Shown: piece after piece, positions 8,035 through 64,000 of the stretch
Layout: the number at the start of each line of letters is the position of its first letter
Position numbering within the stretch: the stretch's first letter is position 1
DNA from: an uncultured bacterium
GTDB taxonomy: Bacteria; Krumholzibacteriota; Krumholzibacteriia; WVZY01; JAKEHA01
NCBI GenBank assembly: GCA_964560355.1
Contig: CAZLLI010000001.1
Location: 834-64,833, forward strand
Length of the DNA stretch: 64,000 nucleotides
Direction: 5' to 3'
Made by a program: the position numbers and the translations under genes
Notes under the pieces: generated by a model
The model's database searches: none
Told to the model about the DNA's origin: nothing
The model's input: the letters and a program-made list of their open reading frames with translations, nothing else

Positions 8035-8035
8035 G

Positions 8036-8740
<705 letters not shown>

Positions 8741-13707: not shown

Positions 13708-13711
13708 ATCT

Positions 13712-14668: not shown

Positions 14669-14698
14669 CCTCCTGGAAGGAAACCGGCCCGGCCGGAT

Positions 14699-17767: not shown

Positions 17768-17851
17768 CGTTCCGCGTCCGTCCCGTGGAAGCATTCGCGA
17801 AACCCCTTTCGCCTTCCGACACAAAGCCCGGACCTCCGGGGATGTGTTCAC

Positions 17852-29567: not shown

Positions 29568-30167
29568 TTATCGGTACAGGGCCTTGACGGCGCCCCACGT
29601 CGAGGGCTGCACCGGCAAGGGCGTTCCCGCGGTCTGCCCGCGCGCCACCACTTCGCCGTTGCCCCCGAAGACGAGGTACGGCGACCCCGAAGCGGCCATC
29701 ACGCGCGACGCCGTCGCGCGTTCCTGCGGATAGTTGAAGTAGAGACCGTCGAGTACCGCCCCGTCCGCGAGGGGCGGGTTCGATCCCAACACATAGTAAA
29801 CGATGACTTGCTCGTAGCCGGGAAACTCGGTGGCGAAGGGATAAAGCGACGTGTCGGGAAACGGCCAATCGGTCGGACGTCTTCCCCAGTCATTCACATC
29901 CCATTCGTCGGGGCCGACGCGCGTCGGCTCCCACACGTCGACCAGGTCGGGGTAACGCACGACCGTGAGGGTCGCGCCGTTGTTCCCGACCGCGATCATG
30001 TAGACGCCGGCCCCGGTCGCGTTGGTGACGGTGAACTCCCAATAGCCTCCCGCTTCCCAGCCGGGATCCACGTTCCACAACTCGGTGATGATGAGGTCAG
30101 CGCGCGCGGACGCGGGTAGGATGCCGGCGGCGAGAACGATACAAAGCACGATCGCATTGGTTCGCAT
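29568..30167 (-). CDS. hypothetical secreted protein ending in [11 protein letters not shown]
   Basis: The ATG at 30167 gives [23 protein letters not shown] (signal peptide). 199 aa, with no recognisable catalytic motifs. The C-terminal 11 aa resemble those of the 56803..57534 protein. Confidence 0.55.
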
Positions 30168-30241
30168 ACGAACCTCCTTGTGGATTACTGTACTGTAAAC
30201 AGATACCACAGACGGTCCGCCGTGTCGAGGCCCTTGCGCGC

Positions 30242-41052: not shown

Positions 41053-41966
41053 CGCGCGGCACCCGCGGCGATCCCGTTGGCGTCGACGCCCCGCAGCTCG
41101 CCGAGGCGCATGAGCACGAGGTACGCGTCCTCGAGCGTGACCGGCACGCGCGCGAAGCCGGCCGGCGGATTGCCCTTGGGTTCGTAGATGCGCGCGCGGT
41201 TGCGCCCTTCGAAGAGGAGCGCTTGCGTCACCGTGCGCTCGCCGCGCAGCTTGGGCAGTTCGGCGACGTCGACAACGCCTTCGTAGATGTGCCCGTCGAT
41301 GGCGGCGCGCGCTTCGCTCGGGGTGGTGAGCGCGAGCAGGCGCCCTTCGCGAATCACCGCGAAGCGCGGGCACAGCACCGCGACGTCTTCGACGATGTGG
41401 GTCGAGAGCAGCACGATGCGGTCGGCCGCGAGCTCCGACAACAATTGGTAGAAGCGCAGGCGTTCCTCCGGGTCGAGGCCCGCGGTGGGCTCGTCGACGA
41501 TGATCAGGCGCGGGTCGCCCGCGATCGCTTGCGCGATCCCGAGGCGCTGGCGCATGCCGCCCGAGTAGCCCTTGACCGCGCGCTTGGCGGCGAACGTGAG
41601 GTTGACGCGATCGAGCAGCGCCGCCACCAGCTGCTTGCGCCCGTGCGGTCCGTCGACGCCTTTGAGCGTCAAGAGGTGCGTCAGCATCGCTTCGCCCGAA
41701 AGGTGCGGGTAGAACCCGAACTCCTGCGGGAGGTAGCCGAGCCGCGGCCACAAGCGTTCGGGGTGCGCGAGAATGTCGACGCCGTCGAGCGTGACGGTGC
41801 CCGAGGTCGGCTCGAGGAGGCCCGCGAGAATCTTCATGAAGGTCGACTTGCCGGCGCCGTTTGGGCCCAGGAGGCCGAACATACCGGGCGCGACATCGAG
41901 GTCGACGCCGTTCAAGGCGGTGACGGGACCGGGATAAATCTTGGTGAGCGCGCGAGCGGAGAGCAC
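41049..41966 (-). CDS. ABC transporter ATP-binding protein (ABC-2 type partner)
   Basis: The GTG at 41966 has GAGGAGG 7 nt upstream. GPNGAGKSTF Walker A, YSGGMRQRLGIAQA signature, LIIVDEPTAGLD Walker B. 305 aa. Confidence 0.9.
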   Translation of the reverse strand: MLSARALTKIYPGPVTALNGVDLDVAPGMFGLLGPNGAGKSTFMKILAGLLEPTSGTVTLDGVDILAHPERLWPRLGYLPQEFGFYPHLSGEAMLTHLLTLKGVDGPHGRKQLVAALLDRVNLTFAAKRAVKGYSGGMRQRLGIAQAIAGDPRLIIVDEPTAGLDPEERLRFYQLLSELAADRIVLLSTHIVEDVAVLCPRFAVIREGRLLALTTPSEARAAIDGHIYEGVVDVAELPKLRGERTVTQALLFEGRNRARIYEPKGNPPAGFARVPVTLEDAYLVLMRLGELRGVDANGIAAGAAR

Positions 41967-48922: not shown

Positions 48923-49294
48923 CTACCCCCCGCTCAACCACGCCACCGCGCTCTCGAAGTCGCGGAAGACCTCCACGTCGACGCCGACAGCACCGCTGTA
49001 CACCGAGCCCAGCCGGCTCAACCCGAAGTGCACGTCGCTCGACGCCACCACCGCCGCGCGCCCGCCGACCCGGTCCCCGTACGGACCGATGTACTCCGCG
49101 ACGCGACGGATGTCGGCGACCGCCGCCGTGGCGAGCGTCTCCGAGCGACGCACGTCGGCGATGAGCGCGACCGGATTCGGACACAACGGGTCGTTCATCG
49201 CCGTGACGAACGTCTTGATGACGTCGTCGGGCTCGTACGTCCCGACCAATTCCAATTTGAGCAGGTTCCCGTGAAAGGAATACGTCACCGGCAT
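48923..49294 (-). CDS. small hypothetical protein (about 123 aa; possibly STAS-like)
   Basis: MPVTYSFHGNLLKLELVGTYEPDDV… lies inside the longer ORF 48923..50329. The tail …VEVFRDFESAVAWLSGG resembles anti-sigma antagonist/STAS C-termini. A CCCCCC-gtcattata-GGGGGG hairpin follows the stop (48893..48915). Confidence 0.4.
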   Translation of the reverse strand: MPVTYSFHGNLLKLELVGTYEPDDVIKTFVTAMNDPLCPNPVALIADVRRSETLATAAVADIRRVAEYIGPYGDRVGGRAAVVASSDVHFGLSRLGSVYSGAVGVDVEVFRDFESAVAWLSGG

Positions 49295-49320: not shown

Positions 49321-52221
49321 CTACTTGAGCAACACCATCTTGCGCGTCATCCGCTGACCGTCGACGTCGAGCACGCAGAAGTATACGCCGCTCGACACCG
49401 ATCCGCCGTTGCGATCTTTTCCATCCCACACCGCGGCGTGCGACCCGGCCGGGAAGGTCTGGTCCACCAGCGTACGCACGACGCGCCCCGACGTGTCGAG
49501 CACGAACAGGCGCACGCGCGACGCCGCCGGGACGTCGAACGGAATCGTCGTTTGCGGATTGAACGGGTTGGGGTGGTTCTGTCCCAGCGCGAGCGTGAGC
49601 GCAGCCGTGGTCACGGTCGCGGTCGGCGAGCGGTACTCGCTCCCCTCGCGCGTGCGCACCACCAGATCGTAGTGGTACGTGGTGCTGGGCTCTACGCCGC
49701 GGTCGACGAACGAGCGCGTGTCGTCGGCGGGGCCTTGCGCCACCACGACCGGCGTCGCGGCGCCGGCGTCGCGGCGGTACAGCGTGTACGTCGCCATGGG
49801 TTCGTCGCTCGAGAAGTTCCAGCTCACTTCGACGGCGGAGCCCGCGCGCACGGCTTCGAAGCGCGTGATCAAGACCGGGGTCGGGCCGCCGTCGCGGTTG
49901 ACGGGAATCACGACGTCGTTGGCGCCGGCGAAATCGTCGACGAAATACGAAAGGCGCGCGTATCCCGGCGTGCCCTGCGGCAGCACGAAGCGAAGCTCGA
50001 GCACCGCGACGGCGAAGTTGGCTGGCACGCCCGAGAGCGTGTAGGCCCCGATACGACGCGACCACGGAATCGGAATCGGAACCGGGATCGGCGCCGGGTA
50101 AACCGCGAGTGCCTCCCAGCCGAGGGTCGCACCGATGCGCGACGCCCGAATGAACGACACGGTGGGATCGGTGCTCACGGTGAACGCGAACGATTGCAGC
50201 GACGGAATTCCCGACGCAAACACTTGGGTGATGAGCGTGTCGCCTTCCGCCCAGGTCGGGTACGCGAACACGGTCGGCGTGGTCGGATTCGCCGGCGCCG
50301 CGGCGGCAGCCCCGCCGCAGAACGTGCACGACCCATCGACCGCTTGCTTGTGGATGCAGCGCGCGTCGCGCGGCGTCACAATGCTATTACAGTCGACGTC
50401 GGCGCGCCGGTCGGACCCGGTGCCCCCGCACGCCGCGCCCACGGCAAGCTGGAGCGCGCACTGCGCGTCGTCGACGGTGAGCGATCCGTCGCCGTTGACG
50501 TCGCCGTCGCCGGTCCCGCCCGGTACCACGGTGAACGACCACAACGGGCCGATCGTCAGGTTGGCCCCGTCGAACACGTCGATGCGCCAGTAGTACCGCA
50601 TCCCCACCGTGAGCGTGCCCGGGGCGTAGGAGCGCGACGGCCAATCGGCGGCGACGGCGGGGGGCGACGTCGTCGTCCCGAAGTAGACGACATGCGTCAG
50701 CGGGTCGCCGTTGGGGTCCGTCGACGACCAGGTCAAGACGGAGAGCGGGAACGCGATCCCGCCGTTGGGCGGGGACGGGTTGAAGGCCGGGTTGGGCGGA
50801 GAATTGTTGGCGCGCGTGCGGAAGGTCCACACCGGTCCGTCGCTCTGTGCGCCGAGCGGATCGCGCGCCATGACGCGCCAGAAGTACGACGTGTTGGGAA
50901 GCAGGGTGCCGGGATCGTACGAACGCGTCGTCAACCCGGGGCCGGCCAGGGGCGGGTTCGAATCCGTGCCGAAATACACGTCGAAGGTGAGCGGGTCGGC
51001 GTCGGGGTCGAAGCACGACCACGTCAGCCCGGGATCGAGCGAGACGTTGTCGGCCCCGTGGACGGGATTGGGGTTGTAGGGAATCACGGGCTGGCCGTTG
51101 GCCTCGCGCGTGGTGAACGTCCACGTCGGCCCCGATGTCTCCGCCAGCCCGTCACTGGCGACGACGCGCCAATAGTAGGGCGTGTCGGGCGCGAGGACGC
51201 CGGGCGTGTACTCGGGCTGCAAGACGTCCTCCGCGACCAAGGGCGGATTCGGCGACGTGCCGAGGTAGACGTCAAAGGTCAGCACGTCGTTGTCGATGTC
51301 GCCCGCCCCCCAGAAGAGGGTCGCGTTCAGCTGGACGCCGCTCTGACCGCTGATCGGGTGCGGGCTCTCGGGCGGAAACGGCGGCGTGTTGCTCGCGCGC
51401 GTGGTAAACGCCCACACCGGCCCCGACGATTCGAGTCCGAGCGCGTCGCGCGCAACCACGCGCCAGTAGTGCTGGGTGAACGGCGCGAGCGCGGCCGGGA
51501 CGTAGTTCGGCTCCGAAAGGTGCGACGCGACCAAGGGCGGCGACGGCGTGGTGCCGATATAGATGTCGTAGTCCACCAGGTTGCCGTCGACATCGTCCGC
51601 GTACCAATTCATGAACGGGCGCGTGCTCGACCCCGCAGTATTGTCTTGCGGGAACGGATTCGACGGCGCGTAGGGCGCGCTGTTGCCGAGGCACGCGCAC
51701 GACGCGTCCGCGTTCATGTGACTGGTGACGCCGGCGATGGGAAGGTCCTGAAACGCGCAGTCGCTCGCGGACAGCGTCTCCAGCGCGGGGTCGGGGATGA
51801 TCGGATAGGGGCAGCACGACGCGGTCGCGCCGCCGGTTTGGTAGTAGACGATCTGCAGCACGTTGACGGGATCGTCGACGCACTGCGAGAGCGCGACCGA
51901 CACGCCGGTCTGCGAATTCCCGAGTACGAGCGCGGCGCTGGCCGCTTGGTCGTAGAGATAGGTGGCGCCGTAGCACGCGGGTAGTGGTGCGGCGAATTGG
52001 ACCGCGGTGACGCCGCGCGGGTCGGGACGAACGACGACGTACGCGGTGACGTAGCCGGGCGCGTCGCCGCTGAACGAGCACGAGTTCCCGGACGCGTCGC
52101 TATAGAGGCCGATGGAAGCGTTCTGCGCGCGGGCGGACGTCGCCGCCATGCAAATCGAAAGGAGAAGTGCCGCCCGAACGAGTCGCGCGGCGAAACCGCG
52201 TGGCCAGAAGAACTCCGGCAT
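49321..52221 (-). CDS. giant secreted T9SS-cargo protein (paralog 1): Cys-rich N-domain + 4 FN3-like repeats + dockerin-like segment + type-A CTD
   Basis: Signal peptide MPEFFWPRGFAARLVRAALLLSICMAATSARAQ. Conserved Cys-rich domain at aa 33-177. Four repeats of the form DPDGDxLTFDVYFGT…PPLV…YYWRVVARD…GPxWxFTT. GDGDVNGDGSLTVDDAQCA…ADVDCNSIVTPRDARC is a paired dockerin-like Ca loop. The C-terminus …GQNHPNPFNPQTTIPFDVP…SGVYFCVLDVDGQRMTRKMVLLK is the Por secretion-system sorting domain. Confidence 0.85.
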   Translation of the reverse strand: MPEFFWPRGFAARLVRAALLLSICMAATSARAQNASIGLYSDASGNSCSFSGDAPGYVTAYVVVRPDPRGVTAVQFAAPLPACYGATYLYDQAASAALVLGNSQTGVSVALSQCVDDPVNVLQIVYYQTGGATASCCPYPIIPDPALETLSASDCAFQDLPIAGVTSHMNADASCACLGNSAPYAPSNPFPQDNTAGSSTRPFMNWYADDVDGNLVDYDIYIGTTPSPPLVASHLSEPNYVPAALAPFTQHYWRVVARDALGLESSGPVWAFTTRASNTPPFPPESPHPISGQSGVQLNATLFWGAGDIDNDVLTFDVYLGTSPNPPLVAEDVLQPEYTPGVLAPDTPYYWRVVASDGLAETSGPTWTFTTREANGQPVIPYNPNPVHGADNVSLDPGLTWSCFDPDADPLTFDVYFGTDSNPPLAGPGLTTRSYDPGTLLPNTSYFWRVMARDPLGAQSDGPVWTFRTRANNSPPNPAFNPSPPNGGIAFPLSVLTWSSTDPNGDPLTHVVYFGTTTSPPAVAADWPSRSYAPGTLTVGMRYYWRIDVFDGANLTIGPLWSFTVVPGGTGDGDVNGDGSLTVDDAQCALQLAVGAACGGTGSDRRADVDCNSIVTPRDARCIHKQAVDGSCTFCGGAAAAAPANPTTPTVFAYPTWAEGDTLITQVFASGIPSLQSFAFTVSTDPTVSFIRASRIGATLGWEALAVYPAPIPVPIPIPWSRRIGAYTLSGVPANFAVAVLELRFVLPQGTPGYARLSYFVDDFAGANDVVIPVNRDGGPTPVLITRFEAVRAGSAVEVSWNFSSDEPMATYTLYRRDAGAATPVVVAQGPADDTRSFVDRGVEPSTTYHYDLVVRTREGSEYRSPTATVTTAALTLALGQNHPNPFNPQTTIPFDVPAASRVRLFVLDTSGRVVRTLVDQTFPAGSHAAVWDGKDRNGGSVSSGVYFCVLDVDGQRMTRKMVLLK

Positions 52222-52293
52222 GGGTATCCGACGCCGGGTTGGAACTGTGGCGTCGCAAGGAAGTGTACACCGCGCGCTAAAACGCCGTCAATG
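51700..52293. repeat. about 0.6-kb direct repeat, copy A (partner at 54700..55293, offset exactly 3000 bp)
   Basis: Aligning 51795..52278 against 54795..55278 by eye shows essentially 100% identity. A few mismatches occur in 51700..51795 and after 52278. The repeat covers the 5'UTR, start codon, signal peptide and Cys-rich domain of paralog 1. Confidence 0.85.
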
Positions 52294-52296
52294 AGC

Positions 52297-55221
52297 TCAC
52301 TTCAGCAGCACCATCTTGCGCGTGAGTCGCTCGCCGCCTACGTCGAGCACGTAGAAGTAAACGCCACTCGACACCGAGCGGCCACCACCGTCCCTTCCAT
52401 CCCACACAGCGTTGTGTGCACCCGCTGGCACGTTCTCATCCACCAACTTGCGCACCATGCGCCCGGCCGCGTCCATCACGAGCAATCTGACGCGCGCCGG
52501 TGCAGGTATGTCGAACGGGATCGTCGTCTGGGGATTGAACGGGTTCGGGTGGTTCTGACCGAGCGCCAGTGCCACCTGCGCCGTCGTTACGGTGACCGAT
52601 TGCGAGCGGAACTCGCCGCCGGCCTGAGTGCGAACGACCAGCTCGTAGTGATAGGTCGTGCCCGGCAGCACCGCGCGATCGACGTAAGAGCGCGTGCCGA
52701 CGTCGACGCCCTCCACGATTGCGACCGGCTTCGCCGCCCCCACGTCGTGACGGTAGACCGTGTAGCCCGCGATGGGTTCGTCGCTCGCGTAATCCCAGCG
52801 CACTTCAACATCAGAGCCGCTGCGAACGGCTTCGAAGCGCGAGATCAAAACAGGAGTCGGCGGGGCGCTCGGAACGATGATAAATGTGACCGGTTCGGCG
52901 CCCGCGAGATCGTCGATGCACGAGCTTATGGTCGCCGTGCCCGCGCGGTCGTCCGTCAGGTCGAAGTAAAGCAGCAGCATCAGCACGAAGTTCTCCGCGG
53001 GCGCTCCCGAGAGCGAGTAGCCGCCGACGCGTCCGAAGAATCCCGGGAAGGGGATAGCCAAACTTTGTAACCGGGCGAAACCGATTGTCGCACCGGCATT
53101 GACAGCGCCTTGAAACACCGCGTTACCACTGAGGTCGAGTTGGAAACCCAGCGCCTCGAGCGAGGCAACACCCGAGACGAAGACCGGCGCAACCACGAAT
53201 TGGCCCTCCGAATACGTCGTCCCCACGTAGAGTGTCGGCACCAGCACCGCCGCGTGGTCGATCTCGACGGCGCTCGCGGCCGACGCGCCAACACAAAACG
53301 CGCAGGAACCGTCGAGCACGTGCTTGTGGATACAGCGGGCGTCGCGCGGGGTCACGGAAGCATTGCAGTCGACATCGGCGCGTTGGGCTGAATACCCTGG
53401 GCAGCCGGAGCCGCCATAGACGTACCCGCCTAACGCGCAGGACGCATCATCTAACGTGATCGAATTGTCTCCATTCACATCGCCTTTGCCGGGTGCTGGT
53501 AACGTGGTGAACGACCACGTTGGGCCGTCGGTCGTCAGCAAACCGTCCGACGCGACCACTTTCCACAAGTACGTGGTGAGCGGTGCCAGCCCGCCCGGCA
53601 TCACGCCGTGCGACGTCGTCAGGCCCGTCGCGATGAGGGTCAGCGGTGCGACGGTCCCGAAATACAAGTCGTAACTGACGGGATCGGCATCGGGGTCGCT
53701 ACCCACCCAATGCACCGTGCCCAACCCCGCGGGGACCGGGATGGTCCCACCGTCGGGGGGAGTGGGAAACGCAGGAACCGACGGTGCCGCGTTGAACAAC
53801 CGCGTTTGGAACGACCAGATCGGGCCGGCCGTCGTCAATCCGGCGGGATCGCGCGCCACCACATACCAATAATACGTGGTGCCCAAGGCGAGGAGTCCCG
53901 TCGGGAATACCCCCGCCGACAAGTTGTCACTGACCAACGGCGGAGGAGTCGTCGTGCCGAAGTACACGTCATAACGGAGCGCGTCTCCATCGGGATCGCT
54001 GCCACCCCAGGTCAGCGTCAGGCCAGCAAATGGGTGATCCACGCTTCCATCGGGCGGAGTGGGGCTGGTCGGTGGGTTGGGCGGTCGGTTCGCAAAGCTT
54101 CTGGTCGTAAATCTCCATGTGGGTCCCGAGACTACATTGAGTCCGTCCGTAACCACGATACGCCAGAAATACTCCGTCGCTGTCGCGAGCGGCCCCGGCG
54201 AGTACGTCATGGCAGTTTGGTTGTCCGACACGAGGGGCGGCGGATCCGACGTGCCGAAATACACGTCGAAGCCGACGGCGTCGCCATCGGGGTCCTCGCC
54301 GACCCACGTGAGCGTTGGACTCAGTATTACGTTATTCTCGAAATCAGGCGGTTGTGGACTGTCTACTATGTAGGGCGGCGAATTCCCTCCCGAAGCCCTC
54401 GTGGCGAATGTCCACGTTGGCCCCGATGTCTCGAGTCCCTGCTCGTCGCGGGCGACTACGCGCCAGTAGTGCAGCGTGTTGGCAGCCAACTGTGGCGAAA
54501 AGTAATTCGCAGACGGGAGACCGGACGCGACCAACGGGGGCGACGGCGTCGTCCCCAAGTAGATATCGTACTCCGACAGATTGCCGTCGATATCGGACGC
54601 GTACCAACTCATGATCGGAGTCCGGCTGATCCCCGACGTCAGGTCTTGCGGAATGGGATTGGACGCCATCGAGGGGGCGCTATTTCCGGCACACTGGCAC
54701 GACGCGTCCGCGTTCATGTGGCTGGTGACGCCCGCGATGGGAAGGTCTTGGAACGCGCAGTCGCTCGCGGACAGCGTCCCCAGCGCGGGGTCGGGGATGA
54801 TCGGATAGGGGCAGCACGACGCGGTCGCGCCGCCGGTTTGGTAGTAGACGATCTGCAGCACGTTGACGGGATCGTCGACGCACTGCGAGAGCGCGACCGA
54901 CACGCCGGTCTGCGAATTCCCGAGTACGAGCGCGGCGCTGGCCGCTTGGTCGTAGAGATAGGTGGCGCCGTAGCACGCGGGTAGTGGTGCGGCGAATTGG
55001 ACCGCGGTGACGCCGCGCGGGTCGGGACGAACGACGACGTACGCGGTGACGTAGCCGGGCGCGTCGCCGCTGAACGAGCACGAGTTCCCGGACGCGTCGC
55101 TATAGAGGCCGATGGAAGCGTTCTGCGCGCGGGCGGACGTCGCCGCCATGCAAATCGAAAGGAGAAGTGCCGCCCGAACGAGTCGCGCGGCGAAACCGCG
55201 TGGCCAGAAGAACTCCGGCAT
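52297..55221 (-). CDS. giant secreted T9SS-cargo protein (paralog 2)
   Basis: The first ~175 aa are identical to paralog 1 (DNA duplication). It diverges afterwards, with about 5 FN3-like repeats, a dockerin-like GDVNGDNSITLDDASCA…ADVDCNASVTPRDARC and the CTD …NHPNPFNPQTTIPFDIP…SGVYFYVLDVGGERLTRKMVLLK. Confidence 0.85.
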   Translation of the reverse strand: MPEFFWPRGFAARLVRAALLLSICMAATSARAQNASIGLYSDASGNSCSFSGDAPGYVTAYVVVRPDPRGVTAVQFAAPLPACYGATYLYDQAASAALVLGNSQTGVSVALSQCVDDPVNVLQIVYYQTGGATASCCPYPIIPDPALGTLSASDCAFQDLPIAGVTSHMNADASCQCAGNSAPSMASNPIPQDLTSGISRTPIMSWYASDIDGNLSEYDIYLGTTPSPPLVASGLPSANYFSPQLAANTLHYWRVVARDEQGLETSGPTWTFATRASGGNSPPYIVDSPQPPDFENNVILSPTLTWVGEDPDGDAVGFDVYFGTSDPPPLVSDNQTAMTYSPGPLATATEYFWRIVVTDGLNVVSGPTWRFTTRSFANRPPNPPTSPTPPDGSVDHPFAGLTLTWGGSDPDGDALRYDVYFGTTTPPPLVSDNLSAGVFPTGLLALGTTYYWYVVARDPAGLTTAGPIWSFQTRLFNAAPSVPAFPTPPDGGTIPVPAGLGTVHWVGSDPDADPVSYDLYFGTVAPLTLIATGLTTSHGVMPGGLAPLTTYLWKVVASDGLLTTDGPTWSFTTLPAPGKGDVNGDNSITLDDASCALGGYVYGGSGCPGYSAQRADVDCNASVTPRDARCIHKHVLDGSCAFCVGASAASAVEIDHAAVLVPTLYVGTTYSEGQFVVAPVFVSGVASLEALGFQLDLSGNAVFQGAVNAGATIGFARLQSLAIPFPGFFGRVGGYSLSGAPAENFVLMLLLYFDLTDDRAGTATISSCIDDLAGAEPVTFIIVPSAPPTPVLISRFEAVRSGSDVEVRWDYASDEPIAGYTVYRHDVGAAKPVAIVEGVDVGTRSYVDRAVLPGTTYHYELVVRTQAGGEFRSQSVTVTTAQVALALGQNHPNPFNPQTTIPFDIPAPARVRLLVMDAAGRMVRKLVDENVPAGAHNAVWDGRDGGGRSVSSGVYFYVLDVGGERLTRKMVLLK

Positions 55222-55293
55222 GGGTATCCGACGCCGGGTTGGAACTGTGGCGTCGCAAGGAAGTGTACACCGCGCGCTAAAGCGCCGTCAATC
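54700..55293. repeat. about 0.6-kb direct repeat, copy B
   Basis: Partner of 51700..52293. It covers the 5' end of paralog 2 (the antisense ORFs 54680..55081 and 51272..52081 in the track share an identical 108-aa prefix). Confidence 0.85.
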
Positions 55294-56772
55294 GCCGTCT
55301 TCGGTGGTGTCGCTCATCTCGGTGACGAAGGGCGGCGGCAGCATGGATTCCACGCAGGAGGCGTCGAGACCCACCGTAGTGCCGGCGTCGAGAAAGGCGA
55401 GAATGAGCGCGTCGTAGCACTCCATGTTGGCGACGCCGTCGGGATAGTGACCCAAGTAGTCGATCACCACCACGCGGCTGTCGGAGAGCCGCGACGAGAC
55501 CTCCTGCGCCCACACCATCGGCGTCACGTAGTCCATGCCGCCCGCGATCAGCAGGGTCGGGATCGACGCCGCCACCGGCGCGAGCGCGTCGTCGGAGAGC
55601 GCGACCGTCGGCCACAACTTGCACGCGCCCGCTTGCTGGTCGACCCGATAGCGCCCCAGGAACGTTCCCGCCGTTTCGCTCTCGATTTCGTCTTCGGAAA
55701 TTCGCTGCGTCGCTTCCGGGCACGTTACGCACAGGTACATTCCCTCCGCGAACGGAGATTCCCCGCTGTCGGGACTCACGATCGAGAAGAACGGCGCGAA
55801 GTCGCCTTGCGCGGCGTGGTGGACGATGTACGGCACCCCGCGCTGGTACTCCGTAGTAATGAGCAGCGTGCGCAGCGCTTCGAAGAACGGCCCGCGCTGG
55901 AGCGTCACCAGCCGCGTGTCCGAGGTGTCGGAGTAGACCGCGCCCTCGGAGCCGTCCGCGAAGGCGTCCAGCAACGCTTCCCAGTCGCTGCGGATCGACG
56001 GGAAGGCGTCGCCGCACAACGGATCGCGTTCGCAGTCGTCGATTAGTTTTTGCATGACCTCTTCGGACGCGCGCGCGTGGTGGAGCGGGAGCTTCTCGTC
56101 GATCGGCACCGTGCCCGTCAAGACCGCGCAGCGCACGTTCTGCGGGTACTCGCGCATGTACGTCTGCGCGACGATGGTGCCGTACGACAACCCGATGAGG
56201 TCGATCTTCTCGTAGCCCATCGCGAGTCGCACCGCTTCCAAGTCGCGCACCGCGGCCATCGTGGTGTACTGCGTGAGGTCGGCGATCTTCTCCAGCTCGT
56301 CGCGGCAGCGCTTGACCGCGTCCGGCGGATACATCTCGTCGAGCTTGGACGCGCGCTCGAGCTCGGGGCAGCGCAGCGGATTCGACTCACCCGTACCGCG
56401 CTGGTCGACCAGGACCACGTCGCGCGTCGCGCGATAGCCCGTGCTGTCTTGCGCGTACCACGACGCCGCGCTCGACGCCGCCATACCCGGCCCACCCGCG
56501 AGGTCGAAGAGCGGCGCGTCCTTGACCCCGTTCGTGAGCGCGGGAATCACGATCACGCGCAGCGCGATCGTGCGCCCGCCGGGCTGGTCGCGATTCTCGG
56601 GCACCACGAGCTTCCCGACCAGCACCGAGGCGCTGTCGATCAATGTCGGTTCGAGCGCGAGCGTGCGCGGACGCGGCACCGTGTGCATCTCCGGAACCGG
56701 CGCTTGCGCCATTGCCAAAGCCGCGAGCAGAAACAGTAACGCGACGAAGAAGGCCGTCCGTGTCGAAATCAT
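55288..56772 (-). CDS. secreted alpha/beta-hydrolase, S33-type (tripeptidyl/prolyl aminopeptidase-like)
   Basis: Signal peptide MISTRTAFFVALLFLLAALAMAQA. GLSYG nucleophile elbow. Length and Cys pattern resemble secreted tripeptidyl aminopeptidases. Confidence 0.75.
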   Translation of the reverse strand: MISTRTAFFVALLFLLAALAMAQAPVPEMHTVPRPRTLALEPTLIDSASVLVGKLVVPENRDQPGGRTIALRVIVIPALTNGVKDAPLFDLAGGPGMAASSAASWYAQDSTGYRATRDVVLVDQRGTGESNPLRCPELERASKLDEMYPPDAVKRCRDELEKIADLTQYTTMAAVRDLEAVRLAMGYEKIDLIGLSYGTIVAQTYMREYPQNVRCAVLTGTVPIDEKLPLHHARASEEVMQKLIDDCERDPLCGDAFPSIRSDWEALLDAFADGSEGAVYSDTSDTRLVTLQRGPFFEALRTLLITTEYQRGVPYIVHHAAQGDFAPFFSIVSPDSGESPFAEGMYLCVTCPEATQRISEDEIESETAGTFLGRYRVDQQAGACKLWPTVALSDDALAPVAASIPTLLIAGGMDYVTPMVWAQEVSSRLSDSRVVVIDYLGHYPDGVANMECYDALILAFLDAGTTVGLDASCVESMLPPPFVTEMSDTTEDGD

Positions 56773-56802
56773 CGGACGGCGACTATACCAGAGGCCGGCG
56801 CT

Positions 56803-57534
56803 TCAGCGGTACAGCGCTTTGATTCTTCCCCACGTCGAGGCTTCGACCGCGAGCGGCATGACGTAGAAGCGCCACACCAGGCTGCTGCTGTTGAAGGTCC
56901 CGTCCGACGCCACCACGCGCCAATAGTAGACGGTGTTCGCTTGCAGCGGGCCGACGTCGAAGAAGCGATCGCTGATCGCAGCCGCCACCTGCGGCGGCGG
57001 GTTGGTGGTGCCGAAGAGGACGCGGTAGGTAACGGGCTGAAGATCGGTGTCGCCCGACCGCCACCGCAGCGTGACGGTGGGAGGCGCGTACCCCAAGTTG
57101 GCCGGCGTTGGGTCGAAGGGCGGAATCGGCGGCGTGTTCTCTTTGGTGACGAACGACCACGTCGGGCTCGCGGCCTCGAGCCCGGCGGGATCGCGCGCGA
57201 CGACGCGCCAGTGATACGACGTGATGAACTCGAGCGTGGGCGGAATGTAGTAAGGCGTGGCGACGCCGGTCGCGACCAGCGGCGGATCGTCGCTCGCGCC
57301 GAAATAGATGTCGTAGGTGACGTTGTCGCCGTCGGGGTCGCCGCCGACCCAAGACACGGACGAGCCGATCATCTGCTCGGCCGCGCCGTCGAACGGTCGC
57401 GGGACCGACGGGACGTTGGGCGCCGTGTTGTCGGCGAAAGAGACTTGCGGCAGGAGCGCCGCGATCAGCGCGAGCGCGACGAACGCGACGCACCGATCAG
57501 CACGTCGTTCGTGTACGTATGCTGACATGCTCAT
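56803..57534 (-). CDS. small secreted protein with two FN3-like repeats, ending in STWGRIKALYR
   Basis: Signal peptide (…VAFVALALIAALLPQVSFA). Two repeats (DPDGDNVTYDIYFGASDDPPLVA…YHWRVVARD…; …VTYRVLFGTTNPPPQVA…YYWRVVASD…). It has no T9SS CTD; the C-terminal motif is shared with the 29568..30167 protein. Confidence 0.65.
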   Translation of the reverse strand: MSMSAYVHERRADRCVAFVALALIAALLPQVSFADNTAPNVPSVPRPFDGAAEQMIGSSVSWVGGDPDGDNVTYDIYFGASDDPPLVATGVATPYYIPPTLEFITSYHWRVVARDPAGLEAASPTWSFVTKENTPPIPPFDPTPANLGYAPPTVTLRWRSGDTDLQPVTYRVLFGTTNPPPQVAAAISDRFFDVGPLQANTVYYWRVVASDGTFNSSSLVWRFYVMPLAVEASTWGRIKALYR

Positions 57535-57591
57535 GCCTCCTCGGGCGCTGGAGTCAGAGCTACTACTCGACGCCGCGGGCGCGAGCGCGCC

Positions 57592-60500
57592 TCACTTGAG
57601 CAGCACGAGCTTCCTCGTCAACCGCTCGCCTCCGACATCGAGGACGTAGAAGTATACACCACTCGAGACGGCCGCACCGCGATCGTCCTTGCCCTGCCAC
57701 TCGACGCGATGCGAGCCCCCTCCCTGCTCCTCGTCGACCAGCGTCTTCACGAGGCGACCTGAAAGGTCGATTATGCGCAGGCGGACGCCCTCTCGTTCCG
57801 TCGAGGCTGGCAATTCGTACGTAATCGTGGTCCTCGGATTGAACGGGTTGGGGTAGTTCTGGTGCAGCGCAAGCTCCTGGGTCGCGGGCCGGACCTCGAC
57901 AGTCGGGCCCAAGTCTATGAATAGTTGTGGCGCGTCCATGAGATCGTCGACGAACCCGCTGATCAGGATATCGCCATTGATCCCGCGGCTCATGTCGAAA
58001 TAGAGCTCGATGAATTCCCCGGTGCCCGTGACCGCCGCACTCGCAAGGGTGTAGGCGCCGATCACGGACGTACCCAAACTCGGGGTGCGGACCTCGATGA
58101 TTTCGAAGTCGCTGGACGCACCCCGACGCGCGGCGCCGATCATCGGCATCTTGGCGTTCGACATTGAATAGAACCCGAACGCTTCTAGTGAAGGCACATT
58201 TGCCGCTGAAAGTCGCACGACGAGCGTGTCGGCACGCGTCGACGTTGAAGCGAGTGACACCACTGGCCACATGGCGGTCCGCTTTCCCCGCGCCGACGCA
58301 CCGGCGACGGCGCGATCGCAAAGTTCACACGAACCGTCGATCGCTGCCTTGTGGATACAACGCGCGTCGCGTGGCGTCACCGCGCCGCCACAGTCGACGT
58401 CGCCCACGGTGTACGCGGCAGCTCCGCCGCAATCCGGGTTCCATAGCGCGACGTCCATCGCGCATTGCGCGTCGGCGAGCGTCAACACTCCGTCCTGCAC
58501 CAGGTCACCGGGCTGCCGTACCACAAAATTCCAAAGTGACCCCGGCGTCGTCGCCACGCCGTCCGACACGTCCACGCGCCAGTAATAGGCGCGTCCTATT
58601 TCCAACCGACCAGGTGCGTACTGTGGTTCGGGCGTCGACGAAACTACCAGGGGCGGCGAAGATGTCCGGCCGAAGTACACCGCGTAGGTGAGAGACTGGC
58701 CATCGACATCGCTCGCGGTCCAGGTGAGCACAGGATACGACGGCCCCGACGCGCCGCCGTGCCACGGCCACGGACTCGACGCGGCGGTCGGCGGCGTGTT
58801 GGGCTTGGTCGTGAAGGACCAGGTCGGTCCCGACGCCGCGGCGCCGACGGTGTCGCGAGCAACGACGTGCCAGTAGTATCGCGTTGCCAACGCAAGTGCG
58901 CCCGGGCTGTACGTGCGATTGACGATCGATGTCGCGACAAGGGGCGGGACGTCGCCGGTACCGAAGTACACGTCGTAGGTCACGAGATCCCCATCGGGGT
59001 CACCGCTGCTCCATGAGAGATTGGCCGTGGGTGAAACCCCACTCGCACCGTCGGACGGCGATGGATACGACGGCACTGAGGGCGCTCGATTCGACGCGGC
59101 GGTCGTGAATGACCATTGGACTCCCGACGTGGAGTCGCCGTGCGCGTCCGTTGCGACGACGCGCCACTGATACCCGGTCGCGTACGCAAGCGTGGCGGGT
59201 TTGAACGAACGCGACACCAGGTTCGACGCGACGAGCGGCGGATTGGGCCCAGGTCCGAGGTACACGCGATACGTGATCGCGTCCAAGTCCGGATCACTGC
59301 AGCTCCACGTGAGCGTCGGATTGCGTGTGATATCGCTCGCACCGTTGACGGGCGACGGGCCGGCGGGTTCGCCGGGTGGGCTATTGCCCGGAATCGTTGT
59401 GAAGGTCCACAGCGGACCTAGCGTTGTGAGTCCGCCGGTGTCCCGCGCCAGCACGCGCCAGTAGTAGCGCATCCCGCGAACGAGGATCGGCGGCGCGTAG
59501 GACGGCGAGATGCGATTCGTCGCCACGAGCGGCGGATTCGGCGAGGTCCCCAGATAAACGTCGTAATAGAGAAACTGTCCCTCCGGATCACTCGCGCTCC
59601 ACGATAGGACGGGCCCCGCCGAGACGTTGGTCGCGCCGTCGGGGGGCGATGGATTCGCCGGGGGTGTTGGCGGACTGTTACCGGCCATCGTGTTGAATCG
59701 CCACGTTGGCCCCGACGTCGCAGCCCCCTTCGAATCGCGCGCCACGATGCGCCAGTAATAGCGCGTCGAGAATCCGAGCGCTCCGGGGGAGTACGTACTG
59801 GCGGCCACGTTGCTCGCCACCAATGGCGGAGTCACCGCCGTTCCGAAGTACACATCGAACTTGACCACGTCGGCGTCCGGGTCGGTGCCGGTCCATGCGA
59901 GCGTCTGGTCGACCGGTCGGTTTGTAGCCGCGTTCGCTGGGACTGGATTCGACGGCGCGTTGGGCGGAAGGTTGGACGGACGGGTCGTAAACGTCCACGT
60001 CGGTCCCGATGTCTCTGCTCCCGCCGGATCGCGCGCGACGATTCGCCAATAGTGCGGAGTCGAGAAGCTGAGCGTGTCGGGGTCGTAGGTGGCGGCCGGC
60101 CACGCGGTCACCACGAGCGGCGGCGGCGACACCGTCCCGAAGTACACATCGAAAGTAAGCGGATCGTTGTCGCGATCGCTTGCGGACCAGGACACTCTTT
60201 GGTCGATAGGACGGTTGGTAGCGTTGTTCGACGGAACCGGAGCGAGGGGAACGCTGGGCGGGTAATTGGCGGGGCGCGTGACGAAACTCCACACCGGTCC
60301 CGAGGTCTCGTGTGCCGCGATATCGCGGGCGACCACGCGCCAGTAGTATGTGACCGAGAATGTGAGCAGCGCGGGTGTGAAAGTAGAGATGGTCTGGTTT
60401 GCGGCGACCAACGGGGGCGACGATGCCGTGCCGAAGTACACGTCGTACATCAACGGGTCGCCGTCGATGTCGGCTCCTTGCCACGCCAAGGTCACGGCGA

Positions 60501-61368
60501 GCAGCACATCGGTCGCGGTGTTCGCGGGCGAAGGCTCGTACGGCGAGCTCGGCGGCGAATTAGCGGCGCGAGTGGTAAACGTCCAGGTAGGGCCGGATTC
60601 CTCGAGTCCGAAAGCGTCGCGGACGACGACACGCCAGTAGTGCTGCGTCAATTCGGCAAGCGGAGTCGACGGCGTGTAGTTCGCAGTTGCGAGGCCGGCC
60701 GCCGCAAGGGGAGGTGTCGTCGTTGTACCGAGGTAGACGTCGTAGCCCGCGATATTGTTGTCGAAATCCTGCGATGTCCACGTCATCAGCGGGATGACGC
60801 TGTGACTGGAAGTCTGATTCGCTGGCGACGGCGCCGAGGGCGGTATCGGCGGGCTGTTGCCGACGCACTCGCAGGTCGCATCCGCGTTGAAGTGCGCCAC
60901 GACACTCGTGGTCGGTATTTCGCTGTAGTCGCAACCGCTCGCCGCGATGCTCCCCATGGATGGGGCCGGTAGAATCGGGTACGGACAGCAAGACTGCGTC
61001 GACCCCGAACGCATGTAATTGATCCGCAGCACGCTCACGGGTTGCGTATAGCAGCTTTGCAACACAATCGAGACGCCGGTCTGCGAGTTCCCGAACTTCA
61101 TCATCCCCGGTGTGACCGTCTCTCCGACGTACACCGCCCCTAGACAGGCCGGCACTGGAGCTGAAAACTGCACGGTGTTGACGCCCGCGAAATCGGGGCG
61201 GAACACGACGTAGGCCGTGATGGGACCGGGGTTGTTTCCTGAGAAGCTGCAGGTGTTACCGGTGACATCGGTGTAAAGACCGATGTTGGCGCCCGCGGCG
61301 CGGGCAGGACGCGCCACGAGCATCGCGCATAGAAACGCGGCGGCCAGACAAGCGCACAGTACCCTCAT
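57592..61368 (-). CDS. giant secreted T9SS-cargo protein (paralog 3, about 9 FN3-like repeats)
   Basis: 1258 aa. Signal peptide MRVLCACLAAAFLCAMLVARPARA. The Cys-rich N-domain is about 50% identical to paralogs 1 and 2 (…GLYTDVTGNTCSFSG…CCPYPILP…DATCEC). It has about nine FN3-like repeats and a dockerin-like segment (…GDVDCGGAVTPRDARCIHK…). The CTD is …NYPNPFNPRTTITYELP…SGVYFYVLDVGGERLTRKLVLLK. Confidence 0.85.
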   Translation of the reverse strand: MRVLCACLAAAFLCAMLVARPARAAGANIGLYTDVTGNTCSFSGNNPGPITAYVVFRPDFAGVNTVQFSAPVPACLGAVYVGETVTPGMMKFGNSQTGVSIVLQSCYTQPVSVLRINYMRSGSTQSCCPYPILPAPSMGSIAASGCDYSEIPTTSVVAHFNADATCECVGNSPPIPPSAPSPANQTSSHSVIPLMTWTSQDFDNNIAGYDVYLGTTTTPPLAAAGLATANYTPSTPLAELTQHYWRVVVRDAFGLEESGPTWTFTTRAANSPPSSPYEPSPANTATDVLLAVTLAWQGADIDGDPLMYDVYFGTASSPPLVAANQTISTFTPALLTFSVTYYWRVVARDIAAHETSGPVWSFVTRPANYPPSVPLAPVPSNNATNRPIDQRVSWSASDRDNDPLTFDVYFGTVSPPPLVVTAWPAATYDPDTLSFSTPHYWRIVARDPAGAETSGPTWTFTTRPSNLPPNAPSNPVPANAATNRPVDQTLAWTGTDPDADVVKFDVYFGTAVTPPLVASNVAASTYSPGALGFSTRYYWRIVARDSKGAATSGPTWRFNTMAGNSPPTPPANPSPPDGATNVSAGPVLSWSASDPEGQFLYYDVYLGTSPNPPLVATNRISPSYAPPILVRGMRYYWRVLARDTGGLTTLGPLWTFTTIPGNSPPGEPAGPSPVNGASDITRNPTLTWSCSDPDLDAITYRVYLGPGPNPPLVASNLVSRSFKPATLAYATGYQWRVVATDAHGDSTSGVQWSFTTAASNRAPSVPSYPSPSDGASGVSPTANLSWSSGDPDGDLVTYDVYFGTGDVPPLVATSIVNRTYSPGALALATRYYWHVVARDTVGAAASGPTWSFTTKPNTPPTAASSPWPWHGGASGPSYPVLTWTASDVDGQSLTYAVYFGRTSSPPLVVSSTPEPQYAPGRLEIGRAYYWRVDVSDGVATTPGSLWNFVVRQPGDLVQDGVLTLADAQCAMDVALWNPDCGGAAAYTVGDVDCGGAVTPRDARCIHKAAIDGSCELCDRAVAGASARGKRTAMWPVVSLASTSTRADTLVVRLSAANVPSLEAFGFYSMSNAKMPMIGAARRGASSDFEIIEVRTPSLGTSVIGAYTLASAAVTGTGEFIELYFDMSRGINGDILISGFVDDLMDAPQLFIDLGPTVEVRPATQELALHQNYPNPFNPRTTITYELPASTEREGVRLRIIDLSGRLVKTLVDEEQGGGSHRVEWQGKDDRGAAVSSGVYFYVLDVGGERLTRKLVLLK

Positions 61369-61433
61369 GATAGGTGCCCCCTAAAGGAGTTGGCACCACA
61401 GGCTAGTGCGCCAATTCGTGCCCTAGCGGCTAA

Positions 61434-62846
61434 TCATGCCGTCTTCCCGTGCCACCTTTCCATGTGGCGCGCGTGCGTCTCCAGGTAGGAGCCGGGCGCG
61501 AAGTGGGTGTCGTAAAAACCGAGATCCAGGTGGTGGGCCTGCAAATAGGTTAGCACGAAGATCGACGGCACGGTGCCGGGGAACTTGCCGAAGCGGTCGA
61601 AGATGTACTGGGCCTGGTGGGCGACGCAGGCCTTGAATTCGTCGTCGTGGACCTTGCCGGCGCCGCGCACGCGCGGGTTCTCCTTGTACGGGCCCGGTGT
61701 CTCCGCGTTGAAAGGACCGCCGGGGCCGAACTTGCGCCGCACGACGGCTTCGGTGGCGTCGCGCATGTCCTTATAGTGCGGCGGGCAGAATCCTTCGAAC
61801 ACGCCGGTGAGTCCGGTGACGTTGGGGAGTGCCCACTTGGGGTTGGTGTCGAAGCGAAATCCCAGGCCGGGCATCGCGGGGTCGCCGCTCGCGCCAAGCA
61901 CGCTGAAGGGCGTGAGCCCGTCGAACATCCAGCCGCCCAGGCCGGTCGCTTGCAGCATGAGCATCCCCGCGTAGCACGCGGTGGAAAGCTCCGCGGTCAC
62001 TTCCGCGAGACACAGCTGCTCCAAGTAGGTGAGCGGATACGGATTGTTGACGTCCACGAGGTGCGCGTACTTCTCGATGCCGGGAATCTTGTTGCCGTTC
62101 ACGTCGTCGAAGAAGCACGCGCCGTTTTGCACGATGTAGCAGATCCCCGCGAGCGTGTGCTGCGCCAAGTCGGCGACGGGAATGATGAGCGTGCTGCCGG
62201 GCCGGTTCACGCACCACGGGTTGTGCTGGTCGATGTGCGCGGGGTTGTCGGGAATGTGGAGGCGCGTGTCGGACAGCTTGCGAACGCGCGCGCGGTGCGC
62301 CGCGAAGTACGCGTTCAAGTCGAGGTTGCCGTCGGCGTCGAGCGGGCGCAGGTCGGGCGCGTCGCGGGTCGGGAAGAAATACACGCCGGAGTCGTCGGTG
62401 AAGAAGATCTCGCTGGTGTGGAATCCGGCCGCGGACGGAAACGTGCGCCCGCCGGCGCCGACCGCGTAGTTGGGAATGCTGGGGATGTAGTGTTTGTTGT
62501 ACGGGTGGAGGTAGAACCAGCCCGTGTTCCCCGCCGTCGCCGTGAGCACCATCATCTGCTCGAGGTCGTCGAGCGGCATCGGTTGCTCTTGCGACGTGAA
62601 CGCGAGCGGGCCGTCGGGGATCGACGCACCCAGCGAGAAACGGCGCGCGCGGCGGCCGTGGAGCGCTTCGATCAGCGGGAACTGGACGGCGTCGTCCAAG
62701 CCCGGAGGCGCCGATGAAACGCGGTCGAGGAGCACGCGGCCCTTGCGCTTCATGCGCTCGCCGCGCGAGTTGAGTCCACAACCGGCGAGCAATACGCCGG
62801 TACCGAGAGCCATGTAACCGAGCATCGAGCGACGGGTGAGTTTCAT
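61434..62846 (-). CDS. Tat-exported lipoprotein, tentatively nitroreductase/SagB-like fold
   Basis: MKLTRRSMLGYMALGTGVLLAGC is a twin-arginine motif plus lipobox. The family assignment is tentative (R..S.R.F-like stretch HGRRARRFSL…). 470 aa. Confidence 0.5.
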   Translation of the reverse strand: MKLTRRSMLGYMALGTGVLLAGCGLNSRGERMKRKGRVLLDRVSSAPPGLDDAVQFPLIEALHGRRARRFSLGASIPDGPLAFTSQEQPMPLDDLEQMMVLTATAGNTGWFYLHPYNKHYIPSIPNYAVGAGGRTFPSAAGFHTSEIFFTDDSGVYFFPTRDAPDLRPLDADGNLDLNAYFAAHRARVRKLSDTRLHIPDNPAHIDQHNPWCVNRPGSTLIIPVADLAQHTLAGICYIVQNGACFFDDVNGNKIPGIEKYAHLVDVNNPYPLTYLEQLCLAEVTAELSTACYAGMLMLQATGLGGWMFDGLTPFSVLGASGDPAMPGLGFRFDTNPKWALPNVTGLTGVFEGFCPPHYKDMRDATEAVVRRKFGPGGPFNAETPGPYKENPRVRGAGKVHDDEFKACVAHQAQYIFDRFGKFPGTVPSIFVLTYLQAHHLDLGFYDTHFAPGSYLETHARHMERWHGKTA

Positions 62847-63461: not shown

Positions 63462-64000
63462 CTAGAAGCGTCCCGCGTCGACGTCGTGGATGAACTGCAC
63501 GACGCCCTGCATGTACGTCGCCTGGTCGTCGTACATGGCGAGGTGGCTCCCGTTCGGGCAGTACAAGTAGCGCCCGTGCTTCACCACGCCCGCCATCATC
63601 TCCATGTGCTTGGGATCCATGGTGTCGTATTGCGCGCCGATCACCAGCGTCGGCACCGTGATGTTCGCGAGGTCGGCGGTGCGATTCCATTTCTCCAGCT
63701 TGCCGCTCGCGTCCAATTCGCTCGGGCCCTGCATGGGAATGTAGACCGCCGGGTTCATGTGCTTGAACGCGCGCAGCACCGGGTCGGGCCACTGCGCGTA
63801 CGGCATGCGCAGGATGTGGTGCTCGTAGTGGTTCGGAATCAAAAGCTCCATGTAGCGTGGGTTCGCGTAGTCCTTCGCCGCTTCGATCTTCTGCAGCTCC
63901 GCGAGCACGTTCGGGTCCATGCTCGCCTTGAAGACCGATTTTGCATACGCGCTGTAGTCGGGGATGCTCGACATCATGTTGGAGATGACGAGTCCCTTCA
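63462..64000 (-). CDS. alpha/beta-hydrolase (proline iminopeptidase-like), C-terminal part; gene continues past the window end
   Basis: The ORF is open to the window edge. …TVPTLVIGAQYDTMDP…GSHLAMYDD… is the cap/His region of an alpha/beta hydrolase. Confidence 0.7.
   Translation of the reverse strand, partial: KGLVISNMMSSIPDYSAYAKSVFKASMDPNVLAELQKIEAAKDYANPRYMELLIPNHYEHHILRMPYAQWPDPVLRAFKHMNPAVYIPMQGPSELDASGKLEKWNRTADLANITVPTLVIGAQYDTMDPKHMEMMAGVVKHGRYLYCPNGSHLAMYDDQATYMQGVVQFIHDVDAGRF

Follow-up and report, generated by a model that had tools for sequence, protein, structure and literature searches.

A tandem family of putative surface proteins with a predicted cohesin-fold N-terminal domain in an uncultured Krumholzibacteriota bacterium

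Cohesins are known from the cellulosomal scaffoldins, such as Clostridium thermocellum CipA (1OHZ, 1AOH), and from outside cellulosomes in multi-module secreted proteins, including those of Clostridium perfringens (GH33/GH84; 2VO8, 2W1N, 2JH2) and Archaeoglobus fulgidus (2XDH). The 2W1N structure is itself a cohesin-FN3 (fibronectin type III) pair. Amy4 of the Ruminococcus bromii amylosome, a GH13 enzyme from a Gram-positive host, has a cohesin-type and a dockerin-type module in one polypeptide, and it autoaggregates because the dockerin recognizes the cohesin of the same protein (PMC4611034). A different set of surface proteins, the type-A cargo and fibrillar adhesins of the Bacteroidota type IX secretion system (T9SS), have a Sec signal, a repeat stalk, and a FlgD_ig or Por_Secre_tail C-terminal domain (CTD). 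Here we describe a locus in a 64,000-nucleotide stretch of DNA (the window) from an uncultured bacterium of the Krumholzibacteriota (assembly GCA_964560355.1, contig CAZLLI010000001.1, positions 834 to 64,833 of the forward strand). Three genes in tandem, A, B, and C, encode proteins that begin with a cysteine-rich domain, which we call Coh*, predicted to adopt the cohesin fold. We consider it moderately likely that the locus encodes a tandem family of non-enzymatic, rod-like surface proteins acting by cohesin/dockerin-type docking.

A preliminary description made from the sequence alone had reported three co-oriented genes of 966, 974, and 1258 amino acids (aa) with one layout. These open reading frames (ORFs) were confirmed on the minus strand, which carries nearly all the credible genes in the window (G+C 62-72%). 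The three proteins share 48-60% identity end to end, and their likeness is therefore not due to chance. Architectures were assigned with hidden Markov models made with the window proteins. Paralogs A and B have a signal peptide, the N-domain (Coh*), four FN3-like repeats, a dockerin-like module (D), a domain E, a canonical fn3 domain, and a CTD, in that order. In C the order is signal peptide, Coh*, eight FN3-like repeats, D, E, and CTD. The signal peptides of all three, read straight from the sequence, are of the Sec type. Intergenic gaps in the cluster are 29-75 nt. Paralog B is identical (100%) to the public protein P0005, for which an exact-sequence look-up returned no encoding contig on record. 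The three genes and their parts are as follows.

49321-52221, minus strand: paralog A, 966 aa
52129-52221, minus strand: signal peptide of A
51673-52128, minus strand: Coh* of A
50518-51672, minus strand: four FN3-like repeats of A
50302-50517, minus strand: dockerin-like module of A
49864-50301, minus strand: domain E of A
49606-49863, minus strand: fn3 of A
49324-49605, minus strand: CTD of A
52297-55221, minus strand: paralog B, 974 aa
55129-55221, minus strand: signal peptide of B
54673-55128, minus strand: Coh* of B
53494-54672, minus strand: four FN3-like repeats of B
53278-53493, minus strand: dockerin-like module of B
52840-53277, minus strand: domain E of B
52582-52839, minus strand: fn3 of B
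52300-52581, minus strand: CTD of B
57592-61368, minus strand: paralog C, 1258 aa
61300-61368, minus strand: signal peptide of C
60847-61299, minus strand: Coh* of C
about 58519-60846, minus strand: eight FN3-like repeats of C
58303-58518, minus strand: dockerin-like module of C
57889-58302, minus strand: domain E of C
57595-57888, minus strand: T9SS type-A CTD of C

Coh* is about 150 aa long with eight cysteines in A, B, and C. The window Coh* domains match no Pfam or NCBIfam model. None of 52 family members matched Pfam, including Cohesin (PF00963), at E <= 1, and eight members, five of them standalone, matched no NCBIfam model at E <= 10. Searches against PDB sequences, with a single sequence and with a profile, gave noise only. 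We searched 1.84 billion cluster representatives exhaustively with HMMER and obtained 821 proteins at E <= 1e-3, of which 394 reached E <= 1e-10 and 65 reached E <= 1e-30; word-indexed protein searches yielded few matches (1, 27, and 2, the last with the dockerin-E profile). These matches make Coh* a modular family with 821 clusters or more, which extends beyond the three genes of the window. Named close relatives are annotated, for example, "T9SS type A sorting domain-containing protein", and the rest "hypothetical". All seven genome loci with Coh* come from metagenome-assembled genomes, six labelled Krumholzibacteriia or 'Latescibacteria' and one labelled uncultured bacterium.

The eight-cysteine pattern noted in the preliminary description is well kept, with the individual cysteines present in 86-100% of 156 family domains. 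The cysteine of the 'PxPxC' motif and the second of the 'CC' pair are missing jointly (6 of 6 cases), while the first 'CC' cysteine and the one in strand beta-1 are mutually exclusive in 155 of the 156 domains. As cysteines paired by disulfides in an exported domain would be expected to covary in this way, the Coh* cysteines likely form disulfides. The most conserved motifs aside from the cysteines are V.F.AP.P (at and after strand 3), iG.SQtG (the hairpin of strands 5 and 6), and CC.yp..pdP (strand 8). By strand order only, they would fall on elements of the dockerin-binding face of classical cohesins.

An AlphaFold2 model of Coh* built on a 52-sequence family alignment had a predicted local distance difference test score (pLDDT) of 94.0 and a predicted template modelling score of 0.89. 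The structure is nine-strand and all-beta, and all five models, made without templates, had a pLDDT of 92.9-94.0; a 3-sequence alignment had given an unusable model (pLDDT 41.7). When the model was compared to the PDB with Foldseek, cohesins accounted for nearly all 44 matches at E <= 1e-3 (prob 1.00, TM 0.5-0.7). A second, independent structure-comparison method also returned cohesins, and the number and order of strands in the model are those of the 9-strand cohesin jelly-roll. Coh* is thus predicted to have the cohesin fold in a divergent form rich in disulfides. The opposing view, that the match to cohesins is an artefact of modelling and that this domain has a truly new fold or function, draws on the fold evidence being a prediction and on the lack of sequence similarity to any cohesin. 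Given the agreement of the five template-free models, of the two comparison methods, and of the strand order, we consider it extremely improbable.

The N-domain had been called unplaceable, a claim that a confident hit to a known family was to overturn. It holds for sequence families in Pfam, NCBIfam, and the PDB; at the level of fold the predicted match to cohesins goes against it, in spirit if not in the letter. Coh* is, on the model, undescribed as a sequence family yet a cohesin by fold, and widespread. Like the non-cellulosomal cohesins, it is found outside cellulosomes in multi-module secreted proteins, and its pairing with FN3 resembles 2W1N. It differs from them in sequence (5-14% identity, no Pfam Cohesin match), in its eight conserved, covarying cysteines, and in its host, from the Gram-negative FCB group (Fibrobacterota-Chlorobiota-Bacteroidota), where anchoring would be by T9SS or by a short C-terminal tag, the TWG tag.

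Between Coh* and the C-terminal modules lie the FN3-like repeats. Their profile matches solved FN3 domains from titin (E 1.4e-9), chitinase A1 (1K85; E 2.6e-6), and neogenin, and Pfam fn3 scores over its cutoff in A, B, and C. This bears out the FN3 identity proposed earlier, though not the upper end of the 4-9 repeats then given, the maximum being the eight of C. Module D has two DxNxDG-type EF-hand-like loops, GDVNGDGSLTVDDA and ADVDCNSIVTPRDA, readable in A and B, and six conserved cysteines. The window proteins score 14.7-16.6 bits with Dockerin_1 (PF00404), under the 22.9 gathering cutoff. Across the family, 18 of 25 members match Dockerin_1 (best E 5.9e-6), in line with the earlier reading of the module as dockerin-like. 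Profile searches of the PDB with module D gave weak matches, mostly to dockerins.

Domain E directly follows D in 31 of 34 cases, and the paralogs differ more in E than in any other part (28-36% identity, compared to 61-73% for the CTD). It had been suggested to be possibly cohesin-like. Two of 25 members do match Pfam Cohesin, weakly (best E 0.0045). A PDB profile search with E had no cohesin among its matches, and profile-profile comparison of E to Coh* with hhalign gave a probability of 0.8%, that is, no relationship.

To place the window proteins in their family, we counted architectures among about 150 of the best Coh* members.

Coh* followed by a short tag, standalone, about 185 aa: 45
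Coh*, BACON repeats, Coh*, tag: 23
Coh*, FN3 repeats, optional D-E, optional fn3, CTD: about 30

No catalytic domain was found in the sampled architectures. As read from their modules, paralogs A, B, and C are secreted, modular, non-enzymatic proteins in which a tip with a predicted cohesin fold is joined to an FN3 stalk, followed by a dockerin-like module and a T9SS CTD. Because each chain combines a cohesin-fold module with a dockerin-like one and lacks any catalytic domain, protein-protein docking is the most likely role. Docking is further supported by the Amy4 precedent and by the distribution of the dockerin variant: in all seven metagenome loci confirmed to encode it, the variant is inside a Coh*-family protein, and none of the seven is on an enzyme. 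Like Amy4, the window proteins combine both module types in one polypeptide. They differ from it in having no catalytic domain, in a binding activity that is presumed from the modules, and in a dockerin-like module that is internal, cysteine-rich, and fused to E.

The cohesin fold of the N-domain also raises the possibility that the Coh* proteins are scaffoldins in a cellulosome-like arrangement, recruiting dockerin-bearing enzymes to the surface. A candidate is encoded between B and C.

55288-56772, minus strand: secreted alpha/beta hydrolase of the S33 / TAP-like type, 494 aa

This protein, described earlier as a secreted S33-type peptidase, does match Abhydrolase_1 (69.7 bits) and the Abhydrolase_4/TAP-like C-terminal domain (45.3 bits), both over the Pfam cutoffs, and contains a GLSYG nucleophile elbow (GxSxG type). 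A hydrolase 71-79% identical is retained between or beside the paralogs in four related loci (L001, L002, and L013/L014), which counts in favor of recruitment. It is absent from the related L011 cluster, however, and in Pfam searches the window hydrolase has neither a dockerin nor any other added module. As the hydrolase lacks a dockerin and the dockerin variant is found only in Coh* proteins, we downgraded enzyme scaffolding to an improbable explanation; the absence of catalytic domains from the sampled family also argues against it. Unlike the cellulosomal scaffoldins, the window proteins have a single Coh* per chain (relatives have at most three) and no carbohydrate-binding module, and no partner dockerins were found on enzymes.

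Several observations weigh against docking of Coh* to the dockerin-like module. Most Coh* members are without a dockerin in the same chain (the 45 standalone and 23 BACON proteins of the roughly 150 sampled), so Coh* function cannot depend on a dockerin in general. Dockerin-binding residues are not transferable to Coh* because it has no sequence similarity to Pfam Cohesin. The first calcium loop of C is degenerate. Module D, being internal and always fused to E, may be a structural unit acting in cis. As to surface display, only one T9SS machinery gene is in the window; the core PorK/L/M/N, SprA, and PorU genes are not.

Some of the same evidence would suit a fibrillar adhesin, with Coh* as a tip that binds an external ligand (a polysaccharide, a mineral, or the surface of another organism), FN3 as the stalk, and D and E as a calcium-stabilized structural unit, without any cohesin-dockerin pairing. 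A tip, a repeat stalk, and a C-terminal anchor are the layout of such adhesins, and Coh* is widespread in chains lacking a dockerin. The window proteins differ from Bacteroidota adhesins in their cohesin-fold tip, in their occurrence in Krumholzibacteriota and 'Latescibacteria', and in the exchange of the CTD for a short tag in relatives. This is the main rival to docking and a credible one, though we rate it as unlikely: the presence of a dockerin-like module in these very chains can hardly be coincidental, and the gene neighborhood points to no ligand.

The CTDs are the basis for placing these proteins on the cell surface. FlgD_ig matches A, B, and C at 31.4-34.3 bits (Pfam cutoff 27). The T9SS type-A sorting domain model TIGR04183 matches C at 31.3 bits, over its cutoff of 23, while A and B score 21.0 and 21.8. 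All three have the N-terminal Sec signal and C-terminal sorting domain (TIGR04183 / PF18962 / FlgD_ig) that mark T9SS type-A cargo, as the preliminary description had proposed. The window also encodes an outer-membrane protein of the PorV/PorQ family, a T9SS shuttle and attachment component.

13712-14668, minus strand: PorV/PorQ-family outer-membrane protein (NF033709, 212.8 bits, cutoff 90)

Since the CTD models match and a PorV/PorQ-family gene is in the window, a T9SS-type sorting pathway is plausible in this organism. The PorV/PorQ gene is the middle one of three adjacent genes on the minus strand (12145-17851). The others encode a GWxTD-domain protein (TIGR04514) and a CarboxypepD_reg protein with a barrel like that of TonB-dependent receptors, and the three may form a T9SS-associated outer-membrane cluster. 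A literature survey found nothing specific on Krumholzibacteria or Latescibacteria with cohesin, dockerin, or T9SS.

If the proteins do act by docking, their path could be as follows. The Sec signal peptide would carry each protein over the inner membrane, disulfides would be made in the cysteine-rich modules in the periplasm, and the type-A CTD would direct export by T9SS and attachment to the cell surface. The mature protein would be a stalk of 4-8 FN3 domains with the disulfide-stabilized Coh* at its distal, N-terminal end. With about 3.5 nm per FN3 domain, we estimate that Coh* would be held about 15-30 nm from the cell. At the cell-proximal end would be the calcium-binding dockerin-like module joined to the variable, beta-rich domain E. 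The binding target of Coh* would then be the dockerin-like module, or a different partner, on a neighboring chain, paralog, or cell. Such self-assembly by cohesin-dockerin contacts might produce a surface mesh or lead to adhesion or aggregation.

Not all members of the family end in a CTD. At least 78 of 170 Coh* family proteins end in a short motif with the consensus ~P-V-x-x-E-(S/T)-T-W-G-(R/K/Q)-(I/V)-K-(A/S)-(L/M)-Y (in short TWGxIKxLY), which we refer to as the TWG tag. It is at or near the C-terminus, with up to about 20 residues beyond it in some members. Two proteins in the window carry the tag.

56803-57534, minus strand: mini-protein, 243 aa, with a signal peptide, two FN3-like repeats, and the C-terminal tag ...AVEASTWGRIKALYR
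29568-30191, minus strand: unrelated small secreted protein with the TWG tag, 207 aa

The mini-protein, located between the hydrolase and C, was correctly described before as having two FN3 repeats and a different C-terminal tag. Its last residues are ...STWGRIKALYR, and its L011 orthologue (7195-8136; 69% identity) ends in the same tag. On the same passenger domains (Coh*, FN3) the tag alternates with the T9SS CTD. It is without a hydrophobic membrane segment. We found no Pfam or NCBIfam model for it (NCBIfam searched to E <= 10) and no literature match for the motif. We take the TWG tag to be an undescribed C-terminal signal, a candidate for sorting or anchoring.

In more distant genomes standalone Coh*-tag genes encoding about 180-220 aa are found in L006 (249-1912), L007 (335-1510), and L008 (166-1470). 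Each locus has a tandem array of two or three such small genes, and the arrays look like pilin-like subunit clusters. They suggest a further explanation, a pilus-like polymer in which Coh* units are joined by the TWGxIKxLY strand through donor-strand-type complementation and the CTD-bearing paralogs serve as anchors or tips. The tag is short, amphipathic, strand-like, and common to different passenger domains. However, the 9-strand sandwich of the Coh* model is already complete without the tag (pLDDT 94), and A, B, and C do not have the tag. We regard a polymer of this kind as very improbable.

Coh* and the TWG tag could also belong together in something larger: an undescribed and widespread surface display and assembly system of Krumholzibacteriota-like, T9SS-bearing candidate lineages, comprising at least 821 clusters. 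Its disulfide-locked, cohesin-like modules would be anchored by T9SS CTDs or by a new short sorting or strand-donor signal at the C-terminus. By interlocking, either among themselves or with dockerin modules rich in cysteine, they would form a non-enzymatic surface lattice or fibrils, a Gram-negative, non-cellulosomal counterpart of cohesin-dockerin assembly. In this full form the proposal is speculative and, in our judgment, rather doubtful.

We also examined whether the cluster is conserved. Two tandem Coh* paralogs are encoded in L001, L002, and L013/L014, and three in L003, L005, L011, and L015. A single copy within +/-10 kb was found only in L004. With tandem arrays in most of the related loci fetched, the earlier view of a coherent, conserved surface module is upheld. 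The order of paralogs, RND (resistance-nodulation-division) fusion protein, and AcrB recurs in two other populations, L011 and L013/L014. L011 additionally retains the small ORF found downstream of A and a DUF1254/DUF1214 gene. Orthologue groups can be followed across genomes, with Coh* of C grouping with that of L011:204 (76% identity) and Coh* of A/B with that of L011:8212 (71%); the array is therefore old.

In L011 and L013/L014, AcrB is 91-92% identical to that of the window while the paralogs are 46-59% identical, indicating the surface proteins evolve much faster than their neighbors. Such divergence is as expected of exposed binding proteins, and it counts in favor of an adhesin. One of the three L011 paralogs is split by frameshift, and likewise in L012. 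This A-type paralog (L011 8212-11157) is in three overlapping frames, encoding Coh* with four FN3, D-E, and fn3-CTD. The split state is common to an NCBI assembly and a Logan assembly, and the AcrB of L011 is 92% identical to that of the window; the split paralog is either a pseudogene or a shared sequencing error.

Two features point to exchange within arrays. Of the three tandem paralogs in L015 (3169-12208), one has a second Coh* in the cell-proximal slot where its neighbor has D-E, which shows swapping of modules within that array. In the window, A and B share a tract of complete nucleotide identity.

51780-52281 and 54780-55281, minus strand: 502-nt tract, 100% identical between A and B

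The tract runs from the 5' leader through the signal peptide into Coh*, most of which it includes. Elsewhere A and B are 36-73% identical by domain. Upstream of the tract the homology continues with one mismatch through a sigma-70-like site; downstream the identity falls gradually (29/30, 28/30, 23/30...) to about 60-70%. This pattern indicates gene conversion in the recent past. We also considered assembly collapse or another assembly artefact, which is unlikely as the identity tapers rather than ending abruptly.

The sigma-70-like sites are matches to the consensus only, and the four found compare to 1.5 +/- 1.2 expected. Those upstream of the paralogs are as follows.

52262-52291, minus strand: TTGACG-18-TACACT, upstream of A
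55262-55291, minus strand: identical copy, upstream of B
61367-61396, minus strand: weaker match, upstream of C

Directly downstream of A, between it and the RND pump, is a small gene.

48923-49294, minus strand: small ORF, 123 aa

It is cytoplasmic-looking, has no signal peptide, and is kept in L011 (11260-11634). With no Pfam match at E <= 1e-3 and no NCBIfam match at E <= 0.01, the label 'STAS-like' given to it in the preliminary description was rejected. It probably does not belong to the surface module. A gene just upstream of C (61434-62846, minus strand) encodes a 470-aa protein that has a twin-arginine motif and whose N-terminus is lipobox-like (MKLTRRSML...LLAGCG). Neither Pfam nor NCBIfam gave a match to this protein, and it did not turn up in the related loci that were examined. 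At 63462-63977 (minus strand) is the C-terminal half of a hydrolase of the proline-iminopeptidase family (S33), apparently truncated by the end of the window and the second S33-type gene close to the cluster. Farther away, at 37453-41966 (minus strand), a 1432-aa protein has an ABC-2-type permease fused to an M1 peptidase domain; on the coding strand an ORF for a GldA-like ABC ATPase precedes the fusion and overlaps its 5' end.

Together, these results would assign to the cohesin fold a domain family of at least 821 clusters now annotated as hypothetical, FlgD Ig-like, or T9SS sorting. They would carry cohesin/dockerin-type modular assembly into uncultured, T9SS-bearing Gram-negative lineages and into enzyme-free proteins, a setting that points to surface architecture, aggregation, or adhesion and not to polysaccharide breakdown. 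The TWGxIKxLY motif is a candidate for a new sorting or anchoring signal worth curation. The locus also shows how surface-protein arrays in this poorly known phylum diverge rapidly and undergo gene conversion.

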